A stretch of DNA of 64,000 nt, from positions 3,748-67,747 of the forward strand of contig JBIKWQ010000004.1 of the NCBI GenBank assembly GCA_044356215.1, given 5' to 3'. Below the pieces are notes generated by a model. The model saw only the letters and a program-made list of their open reading frames with translations. It had not been told where the DNA came from and searched no databases. Below are positions 1,431 to 42,517 of this stretch, piece after piece. Both the position numbers and the translations under genes were made by a program. Positions within the stretch are counted from its first letter, which is position 1; each line of letters opens with the position of its first letter. The stretch comes from Bdellovibrionota bacterium (GTDB taxonomy: Bacteria > Bdellovibrionota_C > UBA2361 > OMII01).

Positions 1431-3134
1431 GTGAGCAAAGTGATGTCTGATCCAGTGACTCCCAAGGCGCCTGAAGTGGTGAACCTGACGATCGATGGTA
1501 AAGCGGTAAGTGTACCCAAGGGGACTAATCTGATCGAGGCCGCGAAGGTGGCTGGCGTGGAGGTTCCTCACTACTGTTACCATCCGCACCTCTCTGTGGC
1601 GGGTAACTGCAGGATGTGTCAGGTCTCTGTGAAGGGACAGCCGAAGATGACGATCGCGTGTAACACGAACGCCGCTGAAGGGATGGAGGTTGCCACTCAC
1701 GAGACCAGCAAGGATGTGGCTGATTCTCAAGCGGCGGTTCTTGAGTTTATCCTTATTAATCACCCGCTAGATTGCACAGTTTGCGATCAGGCAGGCCACT
1801 GTAAATTGCAGGATTATCACTTCGAGTACAACGCTCGTCCGAGCCGTTTTCTTGAGGATAAAGTCCATAAAGTAAAAGCTCTACCACTCGGTCCAAATGT
1901 GATGCTCGATGGAGAGCGTTGTATTATGTGCACCCGCTGTATCCGTTTTTGTGATGAGGTAACAAAAACCTCTGAGCTTGGCATGCTAAACCGCGGAGAC
2001 CAATCGGTGATCGCTGTTAGCCCGGGAAGGGAGCTTAACAACGCGCTTTCTGGCTCAGTTGTTGACCTCTGTCCAGTTGGCGCGCTAACTCACCGTAAGT
2101 GGCGCTTTAACACGAGGATCTGGTTTACCAAACAAACAGAGAGTATCTGTCCTGGATGTTCAACTGGATGCAATGTGAAGGTCGCCGAACGTGATGGCCA
2201 AGTTACCCTTGTTAAAGCGCGTCGTAACGACGGTGTGAATAAGGAGTGGTTGTGCGATGAGGGACGCTACGGATTTGAGCGGTTCCTTCCAAAGAGTCGG
2301 ATAACACACGCGGTAAGCAACAAGGGTGGGGCGATCTCAAACAGTAATATATCAGAGGCGATAAACGCTCTTAAGGGTCAGCTTAAGACAGTTACAGTTT
2401 TAGCTAGCCCAGAGCTTCTTGTTGAGGAGTATTATCTCCTTAGACAGCTGATGTTGCGCGCCTCGTCTGTTAGTCGTGCTGTGATAGCTTACCGCGGGAG
2501 AACACTCTCTCAAGTTGAGGAGATCTTGGTTAGCCCGGACTATGCGGCTAACTTTAGAGGCGCTCAGTTAACTGGACTCGTCGGAGAGTCTCCAGAGCAG
2601 GAGTATCAAGAGGTTCTTGGCAAGATTAGGCGCAAAGAAATTGAGAACATTCTAATCTTAGGAGATCGAGCGATCGATTCACAAGATATGGATGATGCGC
2701 TCATTGAGGGATTAAAGGCGGCCAAGGTATCGGTTGCTCTTATATCAGACGCTAGCTCGCCGCTTGCTGCCGCGGCTAGTTATGTTGTCCCAGTGCGGGG
2801 AATACTTGAGAAGTCTGGATTGCTTCTAAACCGCGCGTTACGACTTCAATATACACAGAACGTGGTGTCCCTCGTTGATGGAACTACCCCAGAGTGGCGG
2901 TTTTTGGCGATGTTAGCAGACGCGGCCAATATAAAGATCGTCTCAGGGGATCTGAAGGCTATGAGTGACAGAGATCTAACGCGCTGGTATCTGGCGACTG
3001 ATCCGGTCTTAGCGCCGCAGGGGTTAACGATACAGACGATCAAAAACGGAGGGGTTCCGCTTGAGGCGAAGGGTCTCAGTGTCGGGCAATCGAAGGCTGA
3101 TGTGTCACAGGGAGCGTCGCCTTCAGCGGCGTAG
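1431..3134 (+). CDS. nuoG: NADH-quinone oxidoreductase subunit G-like (75 kDa family, short 567-aa form)
   Basis: N-terminal 2Fe-2S ferredoxin motif (C..CRMC), His-ligated cluster motif HPLDCTVCDQAGHC, CIMCTRCIRFC, CPVGAL and CPGCSTGC motifs; start could be GTG 1431 or ATG 1443. Confidence 0.8.
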   Translation: MSKVMSDPVTPKAPEVVNLTIDGKAVSVPKGTNLIEAAKVAGVEVPHYCYHPHLSVAGNCRMCQVSVKGQPKMTIACNTNAAEGMEVATHETSKDVADSQAAVLEFILINHPLDCTVCDQAGHCKLQDYHFEYNARPSRFLEDKVHKVKALPLGPNVMLDGERCIMCTRCIRFCDEVTKTSELGMLNRGDQSVIAVSPGRELNNALSGSVVDLCPVGALTHRKWRFNTRIWFTKQTESICPGCSTGCNVKVAERDGQVTLVKARRNDGVNKEWLCDEGRYGFERFLPKSRITHAVSNKGGAISNSNISEAINALKGQLKTVTVLASPELLVEEYYLLRQLMLRASSVSRAVIAYRGRTLSQVEEILVSPDYAANFRGAQLTGLVGESPEQEYQEVLGKIRRKEIENILILGDRAIDSQDMDDALIEGLKAAKVSVALISDASSPLAAAASYVVPVRGILEKSGLLLNRALRLQYTQNVVSLVDGTTPEWRFLAMLADAANIKIVSGDLKAMSDRDLTRWYLATDPVLAPQGLTIQTIKNGGVPLEAKGLSVGQSKADVSQGASPSAA

Positions 3135-3140
3135 AGATCT

Positions 3141-4238
3141 ATGTTTGAATTACTGGTTCTTTTAATTAAGGTTGGCTTCGTGCTGAATATGGCGCTGGTG
3201 TTGGGGTCGCTCTGCACCTGGCTAGAGCGTAAGGGCTCCGCTCTTATTCAAGATCGTGTTGGAGCAAATCGCGCCGGAGCGTTCGTTCAATCTGACAGGT
3301 GGTATGTAAAGCCAGCGTTACCGTTAATCCGTATGATGGGGTGGCTAGGTGTTATTAACACCCTTCTTTGTGATTCGGTAAAAGGGCTTTGGAAAGAGGA
3401 TTTCATTCCAGAGGGGACCTCAAAGTTTCTTCACGCTGTGGCGCCGATAATCGCTGTTTTGCCGATAATGTTGGCGTTCGCTGTTTTGCCACTCGCACCA
3501 GATTTTAACCTCTTTGGCTATTACATTCACCCGCGGGTGGCTCCGATCGACGCGGGGCTCCTGTTTGTGTTGGCGATGGGTTCAGTTGCTGTTTACGGAG
3601 TCGCGATAGCCGGATGGACAGGAAACAATAAGTTCTCCCTCCTCGGATCGCTCAGAGCCGCGGCGCAGATGATCTCATACGAGCTTCCGATGGGCGTGGT
3701 GTTTGTCGCGCTGATCGTTGTTTACGGGACTCTCGATGTTTACTCGATCGTTGAGAAACAAGGGGAGCTGTTGTGGGGAATCGTTCCCAAGTGGGGAGTC
3801 ATTGTTCAGCCAGTGGGCTTTGTGGTGCTGCTGTTAGCAGGCATGGCTGAGACTAAGCGTGGACCGTTTGATTTACCGGAAGCCGAGTCTGAGTTAGCGG
3901 CGGGATACTTTACAGAGTATTCGGGTATGAAGTTTCTGCTTTTCTGGTTGGGCGAGTTCTGTGAGATAGCGCTCTTCGCTCTCTTACTTAGCTTACTTTT
4001 CTTTGGTGGATGGCAGATCCCGTGGGTTAATTTGCCAGAAGGGGTTTGGTGGGCAGCGCTGATCGGCCACATCGTTTTGATGTCTAAAGTGGTGTTCTTC
4101 TGCATATTACAGATCGTTATCCGCTGGACGTTGCCGCGTTTTCGCTATGACCAGCTGATGAATCTAGGGTGGAAGATGTTGTTGCCAGTTAGTTTGTTGA
4201 ACTTAGCCGTAACGGCGATCGTTAAGGTACTAGCATGA
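3141..4238 (+). CDS. nuoH: NADH-quinone oxidoreductase subunit H (ND1)
   Basis: Polytopic membrane protein with ERKGSALIQDRVGANR motif near the N-terminus; position in operon. Confidence 0.8.
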   Translation: MFELLVLLIKVGFVLNMALVLGSLCTWLERKGSALIQDRVGANRAGAFVQSDRWYVKPALPLIRMMGWLGVINTLLCDSVKGLWKEDFIPEGTSKFLHAVAPIIAVLPIMLAFAVLPLAPDFNLFGYYIHPRVAPIDAGLLFVLAMGSVAVYGVAIAGWTGNNKFSLLGSLRAAAQMISYELPMGVVFVALIVVYGTLDVYSIVEKQGELLWGIVPKWGVIVQPVGFVVLLLAGMAETKRGPFDLPEAESELAAGYFTEYSGMKFLLFWLGEFCEIALFALLLSLLFFGGWQIPWVNLPEGVWWAALIGHIVLMSKVVFFCILQIVIRWTLPRFRYDQLMNLGWKMLLPVSLLNLAVTAIVKVLA

Positions 4239-28924: not shown

Positions 28925-28953
28925 ACTGTGATTTCTCAGATGTTATCAACGCT

Positions 28954-30318
28954 GTGCTACAAACTAACGCCTGTATTTCTATGACCCCAACTACCATAGT
29001 GATTATCGGAGGAGGCTGCAGCGGTACTCTAGCCGCCATACAGATTATGCGGCGAGTCAATCATCCTGCGCTCGACGTTATTCTGGTTGAGCGCGCACCT
29101 GCCGCCGCCAGGGGGCTCGCGTATGACGCGCCGAGTGATCGCTGTAAATTAAACGTGCCAGCGCGAGGCATGTCGGCTTTCCCTGATGAGCAAGACAGTT
29201 TTCTTGAATGGATGCGGGGTCACGATCCATCGGTCACTGGGGATGAGTTTATTTCAAGGAGAGTCTATGGCTCTTATCTTCAGGATCTATTGAGACTCCA
29301 TGCAACCAATCAAAACGGAGCGTCTCTCCGCGTTATTTCAGATGAGGTGATAGATCTTCTTTTCCGGGCGGATACAAATAAGTGGGATGTCGTTCTTAAA
29401 GATAGGCCCGCTCTTAGCGCTGATTACTGCGTGCTTGCTCTGGGCAACTTGCGGCGAGTTAGCTTTTGCGGCGTTGAAGTGGCGTCCACTTTTTATGATC
29501 CTTACAAGCGTGGAACATACGAGTCATTATCCCGAGCGGATAGTCTATTGATTTTAGGAAGTGGTCTTACAGCGGTGGATAGCGTTATTGAAGCCGAGGG
29601 GAGTGGTTTCCGAGGTTCTTATACGATGCTGTCACGACATGGGCGAATACCGCTTCCGCACGAGCCTCCTGGTGATTCTCAGTCTTCGCGGCAGCTACCT
29701 TCCCCTGAGTCGCTAGCTGGTTTATCTCTTCGCTCGCTCACGAAACTTGTGGTGTCACTGGCACGCGAGCAGGGATCGTCCCAAGGATTAATAGTCGCCC
29801 TACGTCCATATCTGCAGGAGATATGGCGCAGATTTTCGGATGTTGATAAGAAGCGTTTTTTGCGTCATGTGCGGCCGATCTGGGAGATCCACAGACATCG
29901 AATCCCTAAATCGCATTACGATTTATTAGAGGCACTTAAGAGAGATGGCCGACTGACAGTGTTAGCGGGCCACTTAAAGCAGATTCAACGCGACTCAAAC
30001 GGCGCTCATGTTAAGATAGAAACCCGTGACGCTTTTCTGGAACGCTCGTTTGGTGGGGCGATCCTCTGTGCTGGTCCTGAGGGAGATCTAAACAGGGTAG
30101 GAGATCAACTTGTTAAGAATATCCTGAAACGTGGCGTAATCAAAATGGGCCCCCTCGGTCTTGGCGGAGAGATCGTGGAGGACGCGCCTGGGAGCTCGCG
30201 GTTATTTATGATTGGACCTCTTCAGCGCGAATCGCTCTGGGAGATAACAGCAGTTCGCGAAATACGTGAGGAGGTTGTTAAGTTGGCAGATAGCTTGGCT
30301 ATCAACACCGGTGAGTAG
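28954..30318 (+). CDS. FAD/NAD(P)-binding oxidoreductase (YdhS-like FAD-NAD(P)-binding family)
   Basis: N-terminal Rossmann motif IVIIGGGCSG and a second GSGLTAVD dinucleotide motif; likely start ATG 28981. Confidence 0.6.
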   Translation: MLQTNACISMTPTTIVIIGGGCSGTLAAIQIMRRVNHPALDVILVERAPAAARGLAYDAPSDRCKLNVPARGMSAFPDEQDSFLEWMRGHDPSVTGDEFISRRVYGSYLQDLLRLHATNQNGASLRVISDEVIDLLFRADTNKWDVVLKDRPALSADYCVLALGNLRRVSFCGVEVASTFYDPYKRGTYESLSRADSLLILGSGLTAVDSVIEAEGSGFRGSYTMLSRHGRIPLPHEPPGDSQSSRQLPSPESLAGLSLRSLTKLVVSLAREQGSSQGLIVALRPYLQEIWRRFSDVDKKRFLRHVRPIWEIHRHRIPKSHYDLLEALKRDGRLTVLAGHLKQIQRDSNGAHVKIETRDAFLERSFGGAILCAGPEGDLNRVGDQLVKNILKRGVIKMGPLGLGGEIVEDAPGSSRLFMIGPLQRESLWEITAVREIREEVVKLADSLAINTGE

Positions 30319-30328
30319 TTAGGCTATC

Positions 30329-30457
30329 TTCTGTTTAAAGCTTGGACCACGGCTTGGTAGGTGTATCACCGCTCTGTGCCGCCGCGCCCTGAACAGCGAC
30401 AAATAAGCCGATTCCCGAGCACACATATCTGATTAAGTTCCTAGTGAAAGATTTCAT
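30329..30457 (-). CDS. possible small (42-aa) hydrophobic peptide MKSFTRNLIRYVCSGIGLFVAVQGAAAQSGDTPTKPFKQKIA
   Basis: ATG preceded by GGAGAG at 7-nt spacing; lies in an otherwise non-coding 460-bp gap; below the ORF-track length cutoff. Confidence 0.25.
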
Positions 30458-30779
30458 GGATTAACTCTCCTTCTGTAGCTTTTTGATGACTGCAAGCCCC
30501 TCATAGCTAGGGTCGGATGGTTTCTGAGAAAACTTTAAGCCTTTTTTGTAGCGAGCTTAAAAATATTTCTTAACTAGTCACCGGATTCTTTGGATCGTTG
30601 CAGTCATAACATCGCTTCTCTAGGCGGTCGTTTCTGGCTCTTATATCGGGAATTTTATTGATAACTAGCTGATTTCAATGGTGGTCTGCGTGAAGCTTAG
30701 CGGTCGAATCTGTGATACTCTCTCGAGGCTATCAGCGAACAGCGATTAGTTCGGAAGAGCGGAAGTTTGGAGAGGAAGT

Positions 30780-31877
30780 ATGGCTAGTTTTGGTGGACCT
30801 AGGAGACCAGACGGTGGCTTAGCGCCAAAGGGGGATCAACCTGGGCAACATTCCACTGGCGCATCCCGGCAATCCCAGATCAATAGTACAGGTACTGGTA
30901 AGAAATCAGATCGTCCTGACGTCGATAGTAGCACTGATACCAATCCACCACCTCGTTCAGAAGTATCGATAGTTCGGGCGTTATTCGGCCCAGCGTTTGC
31001 GATAGGGGCAGGAAATACACTCTACATCGCGCAATTCGGTAATCATGTCCTAACTTTGGTTTATGCGTGACTTGCTGCTTTGTCATTCCTTAACTCGGCA
31101 AAGCCGGGATTCGTTAGTGGCATTTTGAGTGGAGGAATTAATAATGATCCACTAGAGGCCGAAAAAAAGCTGAGTGGTTTTAGTGGATTCATCAAGGAGA
31201 AGGTCTCGCGACCAGGAGTATGCTTAGCCGCTAACGGTGTAGCTTATGCGGTGACAGCTTTAGGTTATTTAGGATGGTTAGCGGCAGGTGGGCGGGATTT
31301 TGGTTTCACGGCGAATGATGTGGTTCAGATATTAGTCTGCGGCTTTTCGGCGGTTGGAGAGTTCGCTGGAGCAGCTCTTTGCAACAAAAACGCTTTGCAG
31401 CTAAACCGAGAGCCGTGGGGTCTTGAGAAAATCGCCACAACGATCTGGTCGAAGATACCGACTGGCGTGCGCGCGTTTTTAAGTGATCCGGGGGCTATAT
31501 TCTCTAACGTTAATGCGGTGCTCTACGGATGGACTTTCTACAAAGCCGGAGCTCTTTCAAGTGCCGTCTCGGGCTCTCAGTTGGCCTTAACCGCGGCGGG
31601 CAGTAGCTTTACGTTATTGGGAGCGTTCTTCGGAATATGTTCTGTCTTTTATGGTGCTGGCAAATGGGGCAAACCGTTACCAGTAACATTTAATAGCATC
31701 GGTAACTTCTTCAGTGGAGCGGCGATGATCTCGTTGGGGGTAGCGAGCGCTTCGCTAGTCCCAACGTTAATCGGCGCCGCGTCATTACTCTGGGCCTGGG
31801 GAAACGGATGTTATTCGGTAAATTCGATTCGTGAGACTTTTTTTACTAGTAAGCAAAACTCGCCTACACCTCAATAA
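30780..31877 (+). pseudogene. Gly/Ala-rich membrane protein gene interrupted by an in-frame TGA at 31068-31070 (ORFs 30780-31070 and 31080-31877 share one frame)
   Basis: Both ORFs are in the same frame and separated only by TGA plus 9 nt; hydrophobic segment continues across the stop; the second ORF has only a TTG start with no RBS; strong RBS GGAGAGG before 30780. Confidence 0.5.
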
Positions 31878-33246
31878 GCTCACCATAGCCAGGCACCAAT
31901 GTATTCCACCCAAGCTCACGCCCTAGAGTGGCGCTGAAGCTCTTGGCACTATCAGGCTCGCCGTGAACAACAGCGACCTTGCCTGGCGTTCCAATGCACG
32001 AACGACACCACCTAATCAGCTCATTCTTATCGGCGTGAGCACTAAACCCGCTCATCTCTTGAATCTCGGCGCGTACTGGAACTTCTTCGCCAAAGAGCGT
32101 CATCGTAGTATTGCCGCGCTTAAGCCAATCACCACGCGATCCAGGGGGTTGAAATCCGACGAACAGGATCGTGTTGCGATCATCTGATACGCGGTGCTTC
32201 AGATGGTGTAAGATACGACCACCTGTAAGCATTCCACTCGCTGATATAATCACTATCGGCTCGTGTATCGAGTTAAGCTTAATCGACTCGGCGCGCTCAC
32301 GGGTAAAATACATCTTGGGAACCTGGAAAGGTTGAAATCCTTTTTTTAGGAGAGCAAGCGCGGCGGCGTCGTACTCGTTTGTGTGTCCCTGGTAGATCGA
32401 TGTGGCATCTCGCGCCATCGGGCTGTCTATAATTACAGGTATGTCAGGGATACGCTTCGCTGCCTTTAGCTCCCTTAAATAGTAGAGGATCGTTTGCGTA
32501 CGACCAACGGCAAAGCTAGGGATGACTACCGCTCCGCCGCGTTTACTGGTGCGGTTGATGATGTTCGCTAAGCGTTCGTGTGGGTCAACCTCTGTGTCAT
32601 GAAGTCTGTCGCCATAGGTTGACTCAATCAGAAGTAGATCTCCTAAGGTCGCTGGCTGAGGATCAACAAGAATAGGTTGGTCGTAACGACCGATATCACC
32701 AGAGAAGACGATACGTTTATTGCCAATAGTTAAAGCGATAGAGCACGCTCCTACGATGTGGCCCATCAGCGACCATTCAGCGAAGACCCCTGGCAGAACT
32801 TCAATTTTGGTATTAATTGGAGTCGGCTTGAGAAGGGTTAAAGCTGATTTGGCCTGCTCTTCCGTGTAAAGAGGTAGGGGAGGTGAGTGACGAGAGCTTT
32901 TGTGCTCGGATCTAAAAGACGCCTCCTCTTCTTGAAGTCTGGCGCTATCTAAAAGAAGGAGTCTGGTTAAATCCGCTGTCGCTGGAGAACACCAGACCGG
33001 CGCCTTTAGTCCTAGAGCGTGATAACGGGGCAGTATACCAGTGTGATCGATGTGAGCGTGTGTTAGAAGCCCCGCGTTTATCGCGCCTAAGTCGATCTCT
33101 GGGGGCGCCCAGTTCTTTTCTCGCCATGAGCGTTCCCCTTGGAACATCCCGCAGTCGATTAGGATTTGGTGAGTGCCGTTTGATACCAGATATTTAGAAC
33201 CGGTGACTGTACCGGCGGCGCCTAGGAAGCGGATGGTTAGTGGCAT
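31864..33246 (-). CDS. MBL-fold metallo-hydrolase of the beta-CASP RNA-metabolising family
   Basis: HxHxDH motif (THAHIDHTG) and beta-CASP C-terminal histidine motifs; 460 aa. Confidence 0.8.
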   Translation of the reverse strand: MPLTIRFLGAAGTVTGSKYLVSNGTHQILIDCGMFQGERSWREKNWAPPEIDLGAINAGLLTHAHIDHTGILPRYHALGLKAPVWCSPATADLTRLLLLDSARLQEEEASFRSEHKSSRHSPPLPLYTEEQAKSALTLLKPTPINTKIEVLPGVFAEWSLMGHIVGACSIALTIGNKRIVFSGDIGRYDQPILVDPQPATLGDLLLIESTYGDRLHDTEVDPHERLANIINRTSKRGGAVVIPSFAVGRTQTILYYLRELKAAKRIPDIPVIIDSPMARDATSIYQGHTNEYDAAALALLKKGFQPFQVPKMYFTRERAESIKLNSIHEPIVIISASGMLTGGRILHHLKHRVSDDRNTILFVGFQPPGSRGDWLKRGNTTMTLFGEEVPVRAEIQEMSGFSAHADKNELIRWCRSCIGTPGKVAVVHGEPDSAKSFSATLGRELGWNTLVPGYGELIEV

Positions 33247-33282
33247 AGTGACTCCTTAAAATAGACTGGGCTAGACAGTGAA

Positions 33283-35922
33283 CTACAGAAGCTCAGATTT
33301 TAAAGTCTGATAATCAGTTTTTCCACTACCCAAAACAGGCAAGCTCTTTATCTGGCGCGCTTCGCTGATATGCACAATAGGCGGGAACCCTGCGTTCTTT
33401 AGCGCCGCGTTAGCTCCCTCTACAGAGAGGCTACCGGCGATAAACGCCACAAGCTTAGGCCTTCCATCACCCTCGCTTCCTTGTGTTAAGACCGCCACAG
33501 AAGGTGCGCCATCTGGTGAGGGAACGAGCTTTTGCAGCGCCTCCTCTACGGCGCCAAGGCTAATCATCTCGCCAGCAATCTTTATAAAGCGCTTTAGTCG
33601 ACCGGTAATTACAAGTGAGCCATCCTTTATCAATCCAAGATCTCCAGAGTTGTACCAACGCTCATTTCGATGCTCAACGAATGGATCAATGGCGGGATCA
33701 AGATATCCGTGAAAGACATTTGGGCCTTTGATCAGAATCAGCCCCTGCTCGCCCGTCGCGACAGGCTCTCTGGTCTCAGGATGAACGATAGCTAGCTCTA
33801 CACCGCTTATAGGTCGACCGACCCCTATGCGTGGCTGACTTGGTCTGCCAACGCTCACAACTGGGCTGCACTCGGTTATGCCGTATCCCTCAAGAACCTG
33901 AGCATTAGGATTAATAGCCGCGACCTGCTCAAACAATTCAGTTGGGGCGCGTTCGGCTCCCGACACTAAGGCTCTTAAGGTTTGAAATTGCGTAGCCTCG
34001 CCTGAGCTTAAGATCGATCTCAGAAACGTTGGAGTTCCAGCGGCTATCGTAGCGCTCCAAGCGGAGATAGCTTTGGCTATCTTGCGGCTCTCGTTTGGAT
34101 TCGGATGATAAGCGACCTTGAGCCCTGTCATTAACGGTAAAAGGGTGCAGATCGTTAATCCAAAAGAGTGAAAGGGTGGGAGGAACCCCAGAAGCACATC
34201 GTCTTTTGAGATGCTGAAAGCTTCTAGCACTCCACTTACGTTAGACATGATATTACGGTGGGTCAGCGGCACACCCTTAGGCAGTGCCTCTGATCCGCTT
34301 GTGAATAGAACTACAGCAGGTGAGTCAGGGTCTAACTCTCGTAGCCCGAAAGCTTCTAGGATCTGCTCAGTTGATTCTCTGGCTAGACGCTTGCCAGATA
34401 TCTTGTCGCGCAAGCTTAAGTCTCGGGCGATATCCTCTAAGAGCACGAATCTATTGTCGAGAAAGTCTAGATCGGTAGGGATGAGATCTAGAAATGCTTC
34501 AGATGTGATGATCGCTGATAGTTCAGTGGCCTCGCAGGCGTGCAGGAGCGATCTCTTTCCAGCGGTCCAATTTAGGAATACCGGCGTTTTCCCTGCGAGG
34601 ATCGTAGCCATCGTCACAAGCGACCCGGCCGCTGATGCGGGAAGTAGCACTCCTATATGTGAGCCAGATAGTTGGCTGATGTAGCGAGCAAGGATGACGA
34701 CCTTAAGCTTTACTTCGTTCCAACGAACTACCCCGGCGCGTGGATCGGCGAGAGCCGGCTGCTTACCGAAGCGGCTGCATGCGATTAGAAATGCTTGAGC
34801 GATAGTTGAAGCCGATCTTAGCTCCGGTTCAGGGCGTGTCGCGCTCGCTTCGCTCCAGAACTGAGGGGCAATAATTTCAGATCTGGTGGTAGTTTGATTA
34901 AGCTCACCAGCGGCTGCGCGCATCAGGGAGCCAACAGTGAGCAATTCCGAGAGCTCTACATCGTGAACCTCAAACTCGCGATCTAACCAGATGAGTAACT
35001 CCGCGATTGAGAGTGAGTCGATCCCAAGGTCGTCTCCGAGGCGAGTATCCGGGCTAATGCTAGCAACAGGAACCTGCGCTACGTGAGCCACCCGCGCGAT
35101 AACCTTTTCGCGAATCTCATCGGGAACAGAATCAAGGGAGTGATTAGTGATAGCTCTTTCAGGTAGCTCTGGAACGCTACGATAGAGAAAGCTGTGTGAT
35201 ACAAGCACGGGAGCTTCGGGTTCTGGCGAGTTGTAGTGGGTCTCCAGGTATCTGTTGATCGCCAGAGGCTCCCCATCTTTAGGAAGATCTGTAGGATTAA
35301 AAGTTATCTCGATAGAGACCTGACGGCGGGGTGTAAACAGGAAGAGGTTCTGCAAGAGGATCCTAATTCCTCGCAAGCATGTTTTTCCGACATCAGGCGT
35401 AACGCCGCCGGTAGTCGCCTTAGAGAAGATACTTCCACAGAGGCCACGGATTTTTACCACAGCGACCTGCGCGTTCGGATAGCCTTTTAAGATCGTGTGC
35501 ACCCCTGATGTTCCACCTATCCGTTCTGGGCCACTGACTGATAAGCGACCAGATGGATAAACAAGTATGTTGTCACCGTACTCAAGTGATTGAACGATCT
35601 GGCCTAAAGCCCGCTCGATACGACGGCGTTTGTAGGGGCCAGAATCAAACTCCATATCCGCCATAGGGATAGCTCTGATACGCTTGAGCACCGGATTAAG
35701 AAAACGCAAACGATACATGCTTTCAAGCACAACCGGGCGAGGGCGGAGGGTCTCCCAAAGAAGGGTAGTGACGATAACTGGATCAATCTCGGCTGGGTGA
35801 TTAGGCAGGATTAATACGCCACGGGTCTTGGATACCTCTTCCAGCCCGGTAACGGTGATTTTGTAGCGGAGACTCAGTAAAAGCTTAAGTATTCGTGCTA
35901 ACATACTTCTGCTAGCTTTCAC
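33283..35922 (-). CDS. tri-domain Aas-like protein: lysophospholipid acyltransferase (PlsC-like) - acyl carrier protein domain - acyl-ACP/acyl-CoA synthetase (AMP-binding)
   Basis: HX4D motif NHPAEID plus YPSGRLS block; phosphopantetheine-site DLGIDSLS; AMP-binding motifs LFTSGSEALPKGV and GYGITE. Confidence 0.75.
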   Translation of the reverse strand: MKASRSMLARILKLLLSLRYKITVTGLEEVSKTRGVLILPNHPAEIDPVIVTTLLWETLRPRPVVLESMYRLRFLNPVLKRIRAIPMADMEFDSGPYKRRRIERALGQIVQSLEYGDNILVYPSGRLSVSGPERIGGTSGVHTILKGYPNAQVAVVKIRGLCGSIFSKATTGGVTPDVGKTCLRGIRILLQNLFLFTPRRQVSIEITFNPTDLPKDGEPLAINRYLETHYNSPEPEAPVLVSHSFLYRSVPELPERAITNHSLDSVPDEIREKVIARVAHVAQVPVASISPDTRLGDDLGIDSLSIAELLIWLDREFEVHDVELSELLTVGSLMRAAAGELNQTTTRSEIIAPQFWSEASATRPEPELRSASTIAQAFLIACSRFGKQPALADPRAGVVRWNEVKLKVVILARYISQLSGSHIGVLLPASAAGSLVTMATILAGKTPVFLNWTAGKRSLLHACEATELSAIITSEAFLDLIPTDLDFLDNRFVLLEDIARDLSLRDKISGKRLARESTEQILEAFGLRELDPDSPAVVLFTSGSEALPKGVPLTHRNIMSNVSGVLEAFSISKDDVLLGFLPPFHSFGLTICTLLPLMTGLKVAYHPNPNESRKIAKAISAWSATIAAGTPTFLRSILSSGEATQFQTLRALVSGAERAPTELFEQVAAINPNAQVLEGYGITECSPVVSVGRPSQPRIGVGRPISGVELAIVHPETREPVATGEQGLILIKGPNVFHGYLDPAIDPFVEHRNERWYNSGDLGLIKDGSLVITGRLKRFIKIAGEMISLGAVEEALQKLVPSPDGAPSVAVLTQGSEGDGRPKLVAFIAGSLSVEGANAALKNAGFPPIVHISEARQIKSLPVLGSGKTDYQTLKSELL

Positions 35923-36153: not shown

Positions 36154-37080
36154 ATGGCAAAGATCGTCGTCACCGGAGGTGCTGGTTTTATCGGCTCACA
36201 CATCGTTGACCGTCTTAAAACCGGGAATGAGGTACATGTTATCGACGACCTCTCAAGTGGATTGAAGCAGAACCTCTCCCCTGATGTTAAATTGCATGAG
36301 CTTGATATCCGATCAGAACAAGCTGCTGACCTGATCGCTAAGCTTGAGCCTGATTTCTTAGTACACGCTGCAGCGCAGATCTCGGTTCGTATAAGCATGG
36401 ATAAGCCAGCCGTTGATACAGACATCAACGTGACCGGACTCATAAATCTCCTTACTCCGCTGTGTCATACTAAAAATAAGGCGCATGTTGTGTTCCTCTC
36501 ATCAGGAGGAGCTTGTTATGGAGAGCAGGAAGTATTCCCAGCCCCTGAGGGTCATCCGATTAGACCGGAGAGTGTCTACGGATTATCTAAGAGAGTTGGC
36601 GAGATGTATCTTGAATTCTGGTCGCGCGTTTGGGGAATTAGCAGTACATCGCTGCGACTATCAAATGTCTATGGCCCACGTCAAAACCCTCATGGAGAAG
36701 CCGGTGTAGTGGCGATCTTCTGTGAGCGATTGTTGGCTGGCAAGGATATCGTAGTCAACGGCAGCGGTGAGCAGACTAGAGATTTTGTTTTTGTTGGCGA
36801 TGTCGCGGACGCTGTTTTTAAAGCTGTGGAGAAGCGCCCGGTTGGCGAGTTCAATATCGGAACAGGCCGAGAGACTTCAGTCATCTCTTTGGCGACAGAG
36901 CTTAGAGATCGCGCGTGCCCTACGGCCAAGATTGACTTCGCGCCGGCCAAAGCGGGTGAGCAGATGCGCAGCGTTATCGATAACACCCTTGCAGGAAAGT
37001 TCCTCTCATGGAGCCCTAAGGTGGATATGGCCGATGGATTGGCTCGCACCCTCGAATGGTACCGCGAAGGTAAGAGATAG
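36154..37080 (+). CDS. NAD-dependent epimerase/dehydratase (UDP-glucose 4-epimerase family)
   Basis: GGAGFIGSH Rossmann motif, YxxxK catalytic motif; 308 aa. Confidence 0.8.
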   Translation: MAKIVVTGGAGFIGSHIVDRLKTGNEVHVIDDLSSGLKQNLSPDVKLHELDIRSEQAADLIAKLEPDFLVHAAAQISVRISMDKPAVDTDINVTGLINLLTPLCHTKNKAHVVFLSSGGACYGEQEVFPAPEGHPIRPESVYGLSKRVGEMYLEFWSRVWGISSTSLRLSNVYGPRQNPHGEAGVVAIFCERLLAGKDIVVNGSGEQTRDFVFVGDVADAVFKAVEKRPVGEFNIGTGRETSVISLATELRDRACPTAKIDFAPAKAGEQMRSVIDNTLAGKFLSWSPKVDMADGLARTLEWYREGKR

Positions 37081-38200
37081 TCGTAGCCCGGATAATTTAA
37101 TAACTATATTCATCCCGAGTGTTCACGGAGGTGGAGCCGAGCGCGCCATGCTTGTGTTCGCCTCCGAATTACTTAATTTAGGTTTTAATGTAGATCTGGT
37201 TTTAGTTAGGTTAGAGGGACAGAACGTCAGTCGGATCCCCGGTGGAGCGCGCGTTGTTGATCTAGATTGTCGGCGGATGTTGACCGCGATCCCTAAATTA
37301 ATCAGATATCTTAAAAACCACCAACCGCGCGCTGTTTACTCTACCATCACTCACGCGAACATCGCGCTCGCTTTCGCTTCTAGATTCGCTCGAGTCTCAT
37401 ATCCGGTGGTTGTCAGACAAGCAAATGCGCCGATCTCGGAGACCAAAGATAGTATCGGACGGAAGATTGCCAGCCGAATGATTCCGCTGGCCTATGGTTA
37501 TGCATCAAGGATTATAGCGGTGTCTGATGGGGTGCGTGGGGAGCTAATAAAGCTATCAAGCGGCCTGGAAACGTTGATATCGGTTATTCCTACACCTGTG
37601 ATAAGCGAGCAGCTACTTGACGATGGTACTCGTACCCCAGAACATCCGTGGCTCATACAGCCGCAGCATGATCGAGATGTGCCAGTAATATTAAGCGCAG
37701 GGAGGCTTGAGCCACACAAGGGGATGCTCGACCTAATTCGCGCATTTAAGTCGGTTAGAGATAAAAGAGCGGCGAAGTTAATTATCCTTGGAGAGGGATC
37801 GCAACGGGGAGAGCTTATACGAGCGGCTGAGTCTTTAGGAGTAGGAGATGATGTTGACCTGGTGGGGTTTAAGAGTAATCCCTATGGTTACATGAATCAC
37901 GCTAACGTATTCGCGCTAGCTTCATGGTACGAGGGGCTACCGAATGTATTGATTCAAGCCTTAGCGTTTGGCACCCCAGTAGTAGCGACAGATTGTCCAA
38001 GTGGCCCGCGGGAGATCTTGGAGGATGGCAGATTAGGGAGATTAGTCAGAGTAGGGGATCTTACAGGTTTATCGGATGCTTTAAGTGACTCGTTAGTTTT
38101 ATCTAAGAGTAGTGAAGCAAGAGAGTCAATGCTAAAGCGATTTGGGGCTCGTGAGGCTACGCTTAGGTATTTGGGGGTGGGGTGTGAGACGGGAATTTAG
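37034..38200 (+). CDS. GT4-family glycosyltransferase
   Basis: N-terminal GGGAER motif and C-terminal EX7E-type motif (SWYEGLPNVLIQALAFGTPVVATD); start uncertain, ATG 37034 overlaps the epimerase 3' end. Confidence 0.7.
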   Translation: MDWLAPSNGTAKVRDSRSPDNLITIFIPSVHGGGAERAMLVFASELLNLGFNVDLVLVRLEGQNVSRIPGGARVVDLDCRRMLTAIPKLIRYLKNHQPRAVYSTITHANIALAFASRFARVSYPVVVRQANAPISETKDSIGRKIASRMIPLAYGYASRIIAVSDGVRGELIKLSSGLETLISVIPTPVISEQLLDDGTRTPEHPWLIQPQHDRDVPVILSAGRLEPHKGMLDLIRAFKSVRDKRAAKLIILGEGSQRGELIRAAESLGVGDDVDLVGFKSNPYGYMNHANVFALASWYEGLPNVLIQALAFGTPVVATDCPSGPREILEDGRLGRLVRVGDLTGLSDALSDSLVLSKSSEARESMLKRFGAREATLRYLGVGCETGI

Positions 38201-41113: not shown

Positions 41114-41140
41114 TATAGTCAAATTATATGACTATAGTCA
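41114..41140. promoter_or_regulatory. Palindromic operator upstream of the antitoxin gene: TATAGTCA-N7-TGACTATA overlapping a second TATAGTCA
   Basis: Perfect 8-bp inverted repeat 12-39 bp upstream of the antitoxin start; contains TATAGT/TATAAT-like -10 hexamers. Confidence 0.6.
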
Positions 41141-42517
41141 ACTTGTATTCCTCCCCCCCAACAACACCCCAAGCATCAACAGAAACGGTCTCTGATCAAG
41201 AATATTATGACTAAAAAGCCCACCAACGGCGGCCACAATTATCAGAGCTACGCCGTTGCGGCAGCCTCGCTTCGCAAAAGTTACCATCGAGCAGATGAGG
41301 AACCCCAGGTAGGTTATTAATCCTAGCGCTCCGTTATTTATCCACTGCTGGAGATAGATATTGTGAGGCAGCTCAGACATCGTTCGTGAGAAGCCAGTTC
41401 CGTGACCGAGTAAGGGGGCCTCCTCAATAAGTTCGATCCCCTCAACTACGGCGTCTAAGCGAGTTCCAGCGGAGCCGTCATCAACCTGCTGGTTGTTTAG
41501 TAGTCGCACAAGACGGGACTTTCCCTGTGTGCTAGAGCTTAATTGAGCGAACGTGACAGCGAATCCAAGAGCTATCACCGCTGCTAGGCATATAATCACT
41601 ATCTCCGAGGCGATTCGGGAGCGGGATAATCCGGACTTAAAGAATCTGTAATAGATAGCTATTCCTAAGAGGGCCAAAAATACTACCAGTCCGCTACGCG
41701 ACATGGTCATGCAGACGGTAGAGAAAGTTAAGAGGAGCAGGATAAGGTTGAGCACCACGCTGGTTTGATTGGCCTTTGGCGTGACGCGACCTTTTGGCGT
41801 TCCTAGATCGATCGCTCCAGCGCAGACAATCACCGCTACAAGACTTGAAAAGTTAGCGTTCCCTGAGAATCCCGCTGGGCGATTCGTTATCGGAGCAAAT
41901 GTGCCTGGATGGAGGGTGTCGTACCAGACTGAGGAAGCGAGGAGCAGAAGGCTGCCCAAGGCCGAGAGCTTTACGGCGCTAGAGGTCGTGCTAAAGCGCC
42001 CCATGATCGCGGCGGATGCGGTAATACATAACCCGTATGGAATCAGCAGTATCCACTTAGCACCCTCGCTCCAGAACGCGCCGGGCAGAGCCGAGAGTAT
42101 CAGGGCTAATAGAGCCACCAATGAGAAGGGGACCAGAACCGTAGCATTCTGCCTAAAGACCGTGATTGGACCTTGAACGTAGCTATGGCGCAGGTGTTTA
42201 AGCGTTAATAGAAATATAAATGGAGTCAGCGATACAAGGCATAGGATAGTAGCGCCGGTCGGTAGTTTCCCACCGTGACCAAGAGCTTGGTCAGCGACAG
42301 AGAAGAATAGGATAAGTAGAGCGAAGGTATAGCTAAAAAGAAGAAGCGATCTAAGTGAACTAGTAGGTGATCTTGAGTGTATTGAGTGCATGAACTGCCA
42401 TTTGTAAGTTTCCGCGATAATCTCGTCATTTCCACCTGGATTCCAATGCGCTAGCGCATATCGGACTGAACGGTGTTGAGGGTAAGTTCGGTGCATTTGG
42501 CACTTTATGACGCACAC
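41138..42517 (-). CDS. O-antigen ligase/polymerase family protein (Wzy_C domain, WaaL/Wzy-like)
   Basis: ~10 TM helices and a C-terminal HNIYLQQWINNGALGLITYLGFL-type Wzy_C motif; true start probably internal to the ORF. Confidence 0.7.
   Translation of the reverse strand: MCVIKCQMHRTYPQHRSVRYALAHWNPGGNDEIIAETYKWQFMHSIHSRSPTSSLRSLLLFSYTFALLILFFSVADQALGHGGKLPTGATILCLVSLTPFIFLLTLKHLRHSYVQGPITVFRQNATVLVPFSLVALLALILSALPGAFWSEGAKWILLIPYGLCITASAAIMGRFSTTSSAVKLSALGSLLLLASSVWYDTLHPGTFAPITNRPAGFSGNANFSSLVAVIVCAGAIDLGTPKGRVTPKANQTSVVLNLILLLLTFSTVCMTMSRSGLVVFLALLGIAIYYRFFKSGLSRSRIASEIVIICLAAVIALGFAVTFAQLSSSTQGKSRLVRLLNNQQVDDGSAGTRLDAVVEGIELIEEAPLLGHGTGFSRTMSELPHNIYLQQWINNGALGLITYLGFLICSMVTFAKRGCRNGVALIIVAAVGGLFSHNILDQRPFLLMLGVLLGGRNTS

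Follow-up and report, generated by a model that had tools for sequence, protein, structure and literature searches.

A single in-frame TGA splits a gene for a predicted eight-helix membrane protein of Bdellovibrionota: probably a very recent, strain-specific nonsense mutation

Between positions 30780 and 31877 of the window (by which is meant the whole 64,000-nt stretch of Bdellovibrionota DNA that was analysed) lie two open reading frames that share one frame and are separated only by a TGA and the three codons CTT GCT GCT. The features of this region and of its immediate surroundings are these:

30769-30775, plus strand: Shine-Dalgarno-like GGAGAGG, read from the sequence, 4 nt before the ATG at 30780; the same in contig L001, which carries the intact allele P0001
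30780-31070, plus strand: 5' ORF, ATG start, 96 aa
30780-31067, plus strand: 5' part of the gene, codons 1-96, predicted to encode a disordered, Pro/Gly/Ser/Thr/Asp-rich cytoplasmic tail (~60 aa), transmembrane helix TM1 and the first half of TM2
31068-31070, plus strand: premature stop TGA; a G-to-T substitution at 31068 produced it from GGA, the codon for Gly100 of P0001; the next base is C, giving UGA-C
31071-31877, plus strand: 3' part of the gene, predicted to encode the second half of TM2 and TM3-TM8; TAA stop at 31875-31877; matched by the family profile
31080-31877, plus strand: 3' ORF, TTG start, 265 aa
31094-31108, plus strand: hairpin CTCGGC-AAA-GCCGGG, seen in the sequence, starting 24 nt downstream of the premature stop
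31864-31877: 14-nt tail-to-tail overlap with a convergent beta-CASP metallo-beta-lactamase gene (31864-33246, minus strand)

The original prediction had described two same-frame ORFs split only by the TGA and three codons, and both the coordinates and the read-through translation (...NHVLTLVYA*LAALSFLNSAKPGF...) have been reproduced. Its contrast between a strong GGAGAGG ribosome-binding site ahead of 30780 and a second ORF with only a TTG start can likewise be seen in the sequence, inspection of which found nothing resembling a Shine-Dalgarno sequence before the TTG at 31080. The motifs conserved in the 3' part are SFxN, PGxC, GEFAGA, REP, DPGAxFxxGN and WxxxN. The 14-nt overlap with the beta-CASP gene is shared by L001 and by two other contigs that carry the gene, L083 and L091; there is no downstream operon gene, so the stop has no polar effect. 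Promoter and terminator counts around the gene show no excess over shuffled sequence.

Elsewhere in the window there are five other sites at which two long open stretches in the same frame face each other across one stop, and at four of the five that stop is simply the end of a listed long ORF. Taken alone, such adjacency is thus not unusual in the window, and the status of the two pieces as one gene has to rest on relatives. A profile of the family, built with one 97%-identical allele among its members, matches both pieces, with E = 2.6e-14 for the 5' part and E = 5.5e-84 for the 3' part.

Among 5.8 billion proteins, a word-indexed search matched only two: P0002, which is the 265-aa ORF itself, and P0001, which comes from a JGI metagenome, is 368 aa long and matches the fused sequence from end to end with 97% identity. 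L001, the contig carrying P0001, shares 97.97% identity with the window across 3554 nt, and in the DNA alignment at the stop the sole difference is GGA in place of TGA. A second contig, L091, whose protein shows 93% amino acid identity, has an uninterrupted 368-codon ORF, also with GGA at the site. Three further distinct intact alleles from 90%-identity clusters (P0018, P0019 and P0020) all read LVYAGLAAL there. Glycine occupies the site in all five intact alleles from other metagenomes (P0001, P0018, P0019, P0020 and P0023); the five close alleles are 93-97% identical, are uninterrupted over 368-370 aa, and read either LVYAGLAAL or VVYAGLAAL, the codon itself having been read as DNA for two of them, L001 and L091. 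The question of whether orthologues carry a sense codon in place of the TGA is therefore answered in the affirmative.

With L091 as outgroup, a three-way comparison assigns the substitution of T for G at 31068 to the branch leading to the window, and TGA is thereby shown to be the derived state. The same branch also carries a 9-nt in-frame deletion, the replacements S41G, A50D and V249A, and two synonymous changes; in all, the gene differs from its L001 counterpart by 11 substitutions and one 9-nt indel. Downstream of the TGA this branch has acquired one synonymous and one nonsynonymous change and no more stops or frameshifts, and this lack of any other lesion beyond the stop points to a recent mutation. 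The truncated form is found only on the source contig (80,204 nt, deposited in NCBI and in JGI/IMG) and in its read set.

The differences between the window and L001 over the wider interval 29819-33363 are themselves clustered, with 28 of them in 31899-32107 and eight in 29829-29853, and there are none at all in the 461-nt intergenic region 30319-30779. This distribution resembles patches of recombination set in an otherwise near-identical background.

More distant relatives were sought by an exhaustive HMMER search covering 1.84 billion cluster representatives; the metagenome search was made with a 5-sequence family alignment. The HMMER search gave 16 matches, two of them spurious: P0007 and P0011 are tandem-repeat proteins, one of which matches the Pfam makorin C-terminal domain, and they match the LLWxWG motif only. 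With P0002 excluded there are 13 true homologues, of 246-480 aa and 20-39% identity, each a single ORF. Ten of these 13 run straight across the stop position in the alignment, and the other three start at or near it. At the position of the stop the 14 aligned sequences have, in order, G, A, C, G, G, L, G, G, L, L, F, A, L, F. The positional orthologue P0003, a 359-aa protein encoded without interruption in the arrangement SecY-adk-PBP6-[gene]-beta-CASP, has alanine at the site, and its gene overlaps the beta-CASP gene tail to tail by 14 nt, as the window's does. The case that would have spoken against one gene, orthologues encoded as two separate genes, was looked for and not seen, P0003 and all of the distant homologues being single ORFs. 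With a continuous ORF in every relative, the view that one membrane-protein gene of ~365 aa has been cut by a single in-frame TGA is upheld.

The original prediction had also called the gene an orphan, and this did not hold. Going by profile similarity, it belongs to a small unannotated family, with ~13 clusters among the 1.84 billion representatives. The companion statement that the protein resembles no recognised family has stood: neither the fused protein nor any of its relatives was assigned to a family in Pfam-A, NCBIfam, PADLOC or PHROGs, the only Pfam matches across the 14 members being two isolated weak ones, to T4SS_pilin and to Rv2743c, and the family profile had no match among PDB sequences. 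No match came from tblastn against plasmid and phage collections, no relative from a scan of representative-genome contigs with the protein itself, and no added family members from word-indexed profile searches. Among the distant members no conserved gene neighbourhood was found; a 379-aa ORF upstream of P0005 in L088, considered as a tandem paralogue, is unrelated to the family.

AlphaFold2, given the 14-sequence alignment, produced an all-helical model of the intact protein (mean pLDDT 79, pTM 0.75) in which residues 1-58 are disordered (pLDDT < 50) and are followed by eight long helices, at approximately 67-87, 92-110, 150-171, 181-204, 240-262, 268-294, 303-325 and 329-362. This agrees with the earlier description of a disordered N-terminal region followed by Gly/Ala-rich hydrophobic segments. 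The stop site corresponds to residue 100 of the intact protein, which the model places within the TM2 helix (92-110) at pLDDT > 90, as expected from the claim that a hydrophobic helix continues across the stop. Averaged over the family, the mean number of Lys plus Arg residues is 6.7 in the N-terminal tail, 5.7 in long loop A, 6.4 in long loop B, 1.5 in loop C and 3.6 in the C-terminal tail, as against 0-0.4 in the four short inter-helix turns. By the positive-inside rule, these counts would make the intact protein an inner-membrane protein with eight transmembrane helices, both termini and all of its long loops being cytoplasmic.

The residues that are invariant or nearly so in the alignment (P0001 numbering) lie at the helix ends: S105 and N108; E143, P148 and G149; R213, E219, W226 and P230; P240, G241, F244, G247 and N248; and A337, W341 and N345. 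A Foldseek search of the model against PDB and BFVD gave no match with E < 0.05, the best in PDB having E = 0.054 with TM-scores of 0.19-0.23 and the best in BFVD E = 0.06; in both searches the highest-ranked matches had TM-scores of ~0.2, the chance level for helical bundles. An internal repeat, whether of four helical hairpins or of two halves, was sought with hhalign, and no duplication was detected (probability <= 2.8%). The idea of a bilobed effector like the chlamydial Inc proteins was dropped, there being no profile support for it and eight transmembrane helices rather than one hairpin. The conserved polar, Pro and Gly residues at the helix ends, together with the stand-alone gene context, are the only basis for guessing at a role; the protein is probably accessory, a small transporter or channel-like component, and any specific activity that might be predicted for it would be tentative at best.

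Among within-species alleles the core of the gene has a dN/dS of 0.26-0.32, compared with 0.07-0.25 for the neighbouring genes, values which indicate that the core is under purifying selection and that this is a real, constrained coding gene. The first ~60 codons (window 30780-30960) show 15-16 nonsynonymous and 2 synonymous differences from L091, a dN/dS > 2. The window's private 9-nt deletion falls in this segment; P0019 and P0020 carry a different N-terminal tail segment, and P0019 has a different C-terminal tail as well.

The gene lies in an interval (window 28925-31863) bounded by the PBP6 gene and the convergent beta-CASP gene, a slot whose contents vary among related Bdellovibrionota MAGs; all of the nearest beta-CASP loci come from Bdellovibrionota MAGs from lakes. 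The contents, and a remnant found there, are:

Slot of L006: empty, with the PBP6 and beta-CASP genes directly adjacent
Slot of L083: the family gene only
Slot of the window and of L091: the family gene and an FAD/NAD-binding gene
Slot of L003: a 263-aa ORF, ATPase-like by eye only
Slot of L004: ORFs that are transposase-like by eye only
Window 30285-30457, minus strand: remnant of a dockerin gene, recognised by comparison with L091 and including a 40-aa signal-peptide-like stub at 30335-30457

In L091 a 234-aa dockerin-domain ORF (Pfam Dockerin_1, E = 5e-6; 2977-3681, minus strand) lies between the FAD/NAD-binding and family genes, and ~570 nt of this ORF are deleted in both the window and L001. 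As the dockerin ORF had already been deleted, the nonsense mutation would be the second gene loss at this locus. When the family was compared by tblastn with the beta-CASP loci of 80 other genomic contigs (L003-L082), no copy was found, which is why the sister species L003-L006 are taken to be without the gene.

Compared with its neighbours the family gene is strikingly divergent between related genomes. The positional orthologues at window 30780-31877 and L083:2582-3661 are only 37% identical, whereas the flanking proteins of the same two contigs are 94% (adk), 90% (PBP6) and 95% (beta-CASP) identical; the divergence is far above that predicted from the within-species rate (core dN/dS ~0.3). 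This disparity suggests either allelic replacement or episodic diversification.

Two further observations were made farther along the window. The listed ORFs 36154-37080 (an NAD-dependent epimerase) and 36767-38200 (a GT4 glycosyltransferase) overlap by ~300 nt; since the glycosyltransferase domain starts only at residue 122, the overlap is most likely due to the ORF listing having begun at an upstream GTG rather than to a frameshift. With an O-antigen-ligase-like gene nearby (41138-42517, minus strand), these genes may form a surface-polysaccharide cluster.

Taken together, the evidence makes it highly probable (about 0.85) that the two ORFs are one ancestral gene interrupted by a very recent, strain-specific G-to-T nonsense mutation, GGA to TGA, at 31068. 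Of the explanations that the original prediction had offered, it is the recent nonsense mutation, giving a pseudogene, that is borne out: the close alleles have GGA (Gly), TGA is derived, and the rest of the frame is open. The ancestral gene, of ~365 codons, would have encoded a polytopic inner-membrane protein until the change, very recently and in the source strain, turned its glycine codon into a stop. Ribosomes starting from the ATG and its Shine-Dalgarno-like sequence at 30780 would now terminate after 96 residues, releasing a product that ends midway through TM2, comprises otherwise only TM1 and the disordered cytoplasmic tail, and lacks seven and a half helices of the intact architecture as reckoned here. 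The other 268 codons would go untranslated, barring rare near-cognate readthrough of UGA-C or inefficient re-initiation at the TTG at 31080. A break at this point, within one of the membrane-spanning helices of a compact bundle, most likely makes the allele null, that is, a young pseudogene or a loss-of-function polymorphism, though some complete protein, carrying Trp at position 97, may still be produced.

A more ambitious reading gives the loss a selective cause. The 37%-identical alleles between flanks of 90-95% identity, the dN/dS > 2 of the tail and the presence or absence of the gene among sister species could together mean that this undescribed eight-helix family occupies a hypervariable slot under diversifying selection, and that the nonsense allele is an adaptive loss segregating in the lake population and not a case of neutral decay. 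This we consider unlikely; were it true, the protein might be, for example, a component of phage contact, prey contact or sensing.

It is less likely still that the broken allele retains part of its function, either by leaky readthrough of UGA-C or through re-initiation at the TTG at 31080 with the two fragments assembling. In E. coli, UGA followed by C is reportedly the weakest termination context (Poole, Brown and Tate 1995), and it is the leakiest context in bacteria; the in-frame TTG lies only 9 nt after the stop, and the downstream frame is still wholly open. An open frame is, however, equally to be expected of a mutation too young to have decayed, the TTG has no Shine-Dalgarno-like sequence, a break in the middle of TM2 leaves that helix complete in neither fragment, and no relative has a split or stop-containing arrangement.

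There is a very small chance that the stop is a sequencing or consensus error and that the true genome has GGA and an intact gene. The stop is indeed present in one genome only, all other alleles have glycine, and the difference is a single base. Consensus substitution errors are very rare in short-read assemblies, and the Logan assembly of run SRR11638223 (L002), made with its own assembler, agrees with the window at every one of 4901 nt, the TGA among them, and again shows the split into 96 and 265 aa, on an unbroken contig of 6,091 nt; this assembly and the deposited MAG may share the same reads, so that the support is at the level of assembly. This identity makes an error arising in the assembly or polishing of the MAG improbable. 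The other private changes on the window's branch (the 9-nt deletion, S41G, A50D and V249A) also show that the window holds a distinct allele and not a miscalled copy of L001. The sequencing error offered as one alternative in the original prediction is not supported, the same base being seen in an independent assembly of the run.

Programmed recoding, with UGA read as selenocysteine, as glycine under genetic code 25, or by a conserved regulatory readthrough, is so improbable as to be set aside, even though glycine, the codon's meaning in the relatives, is what UGA specifies in code 25 (SR1/Gracilibacteria), and a small hairpin lies 24 nt downstream: the stop is missing from every relative, and its column (G/A/C/L/F) has Cys in 1 of 14 sequences and is not conserved. 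Code 25 was rejected on the window's own genes, TGA ending the nuoE-like, nuoH and EF-G (fusA) genes with Pfam matches that reach the end of the profile in each. The earlier remark that TGA is a genuine stop in nuoE and fusA is in accord with this, and no other long ORF pair split by TGA occurs in the window. The predicted hairpin does exist as a sequence, but it carries no folding signal: the 71-nt region around and after the stop has a minimum free energy of -15.7 kcal/mol, compared with a shuffle mean of -15.6 (z = -0.03). Neither a SECIS element nor a tRNA-Sec was found in the 64-kb window by Rfam and ARAGORN (the sole tRNA is a tRNA-Arg), and there is no Rfam match in the region of the stop. 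With the stop not conserved, the column not Cys and no SECIS-like fold, selenocysteine and programmed readthrough, both put forward in the original prediction, fall away; readthrough in particular was rejected for want of any relative with a stop at the site.

The stop codons of the 47 long ORFs in the window are TAG in 22, TAA in 17 and TGA in 8. TAG is thus the commonest, a preference that is unusual for a genome of ~50% GC.

The present in-frame TGA should accordingly not be counted as an instance of recoding, selenocysteine or an alternative genetic code, and in the annotation the two "hypothetical proteins", 96 and 265 aa long, should become a single entry marked as a disrupted gene. A by-product of the analysis is a small unannotated family of predicted eight-helix membrane proteins from uncultured freshwater Bdellovibrionota, with signs of unusually fast or mosaic evolution and a confident AlphaFold model that has no structural neighbour; the family is perhaps worth registering, and the evidence gives no sign of a new mechanism.

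Among known membrane proteins, those built of polytopic helical hairpins offer the closest general likeness, sharing the Gly/Ala-rich bundle of transmembrane helices, the tight periplasmic turns and the conserved polar residues at helix ends; the weak Foldseek neighbours, transhydrogenase domain II and the SatP succinate-acetate channel, are not significant matches. With bacterial selenoprotein genes the locus has in common an in-frame UGA in a conserved ORF and a small hairpin downstream. It differs from them in that the position of the stop is occupied in its homologues by Gly, Ala or a hydrophobic residue and not by Cys or Sec, that the hairpin is at chance level and 24 nt away, where a SECIS element lies immediately downstream of the UGA, and that the UGA is conserved in no relative. 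The resemblance to young nonsense pseudogenes goes much further: a single base change, a sense codon in conspecific strains, a frame otherwise undecayed, and an accessory gene in a variable region where a neighbour has also been destroyed by deletion. There is no difference in kind from these, the sole unusual point being the undescribed family of which the gene is a member, and the phenomenon is one of ordinary recent gene inactivation, not of recoding.
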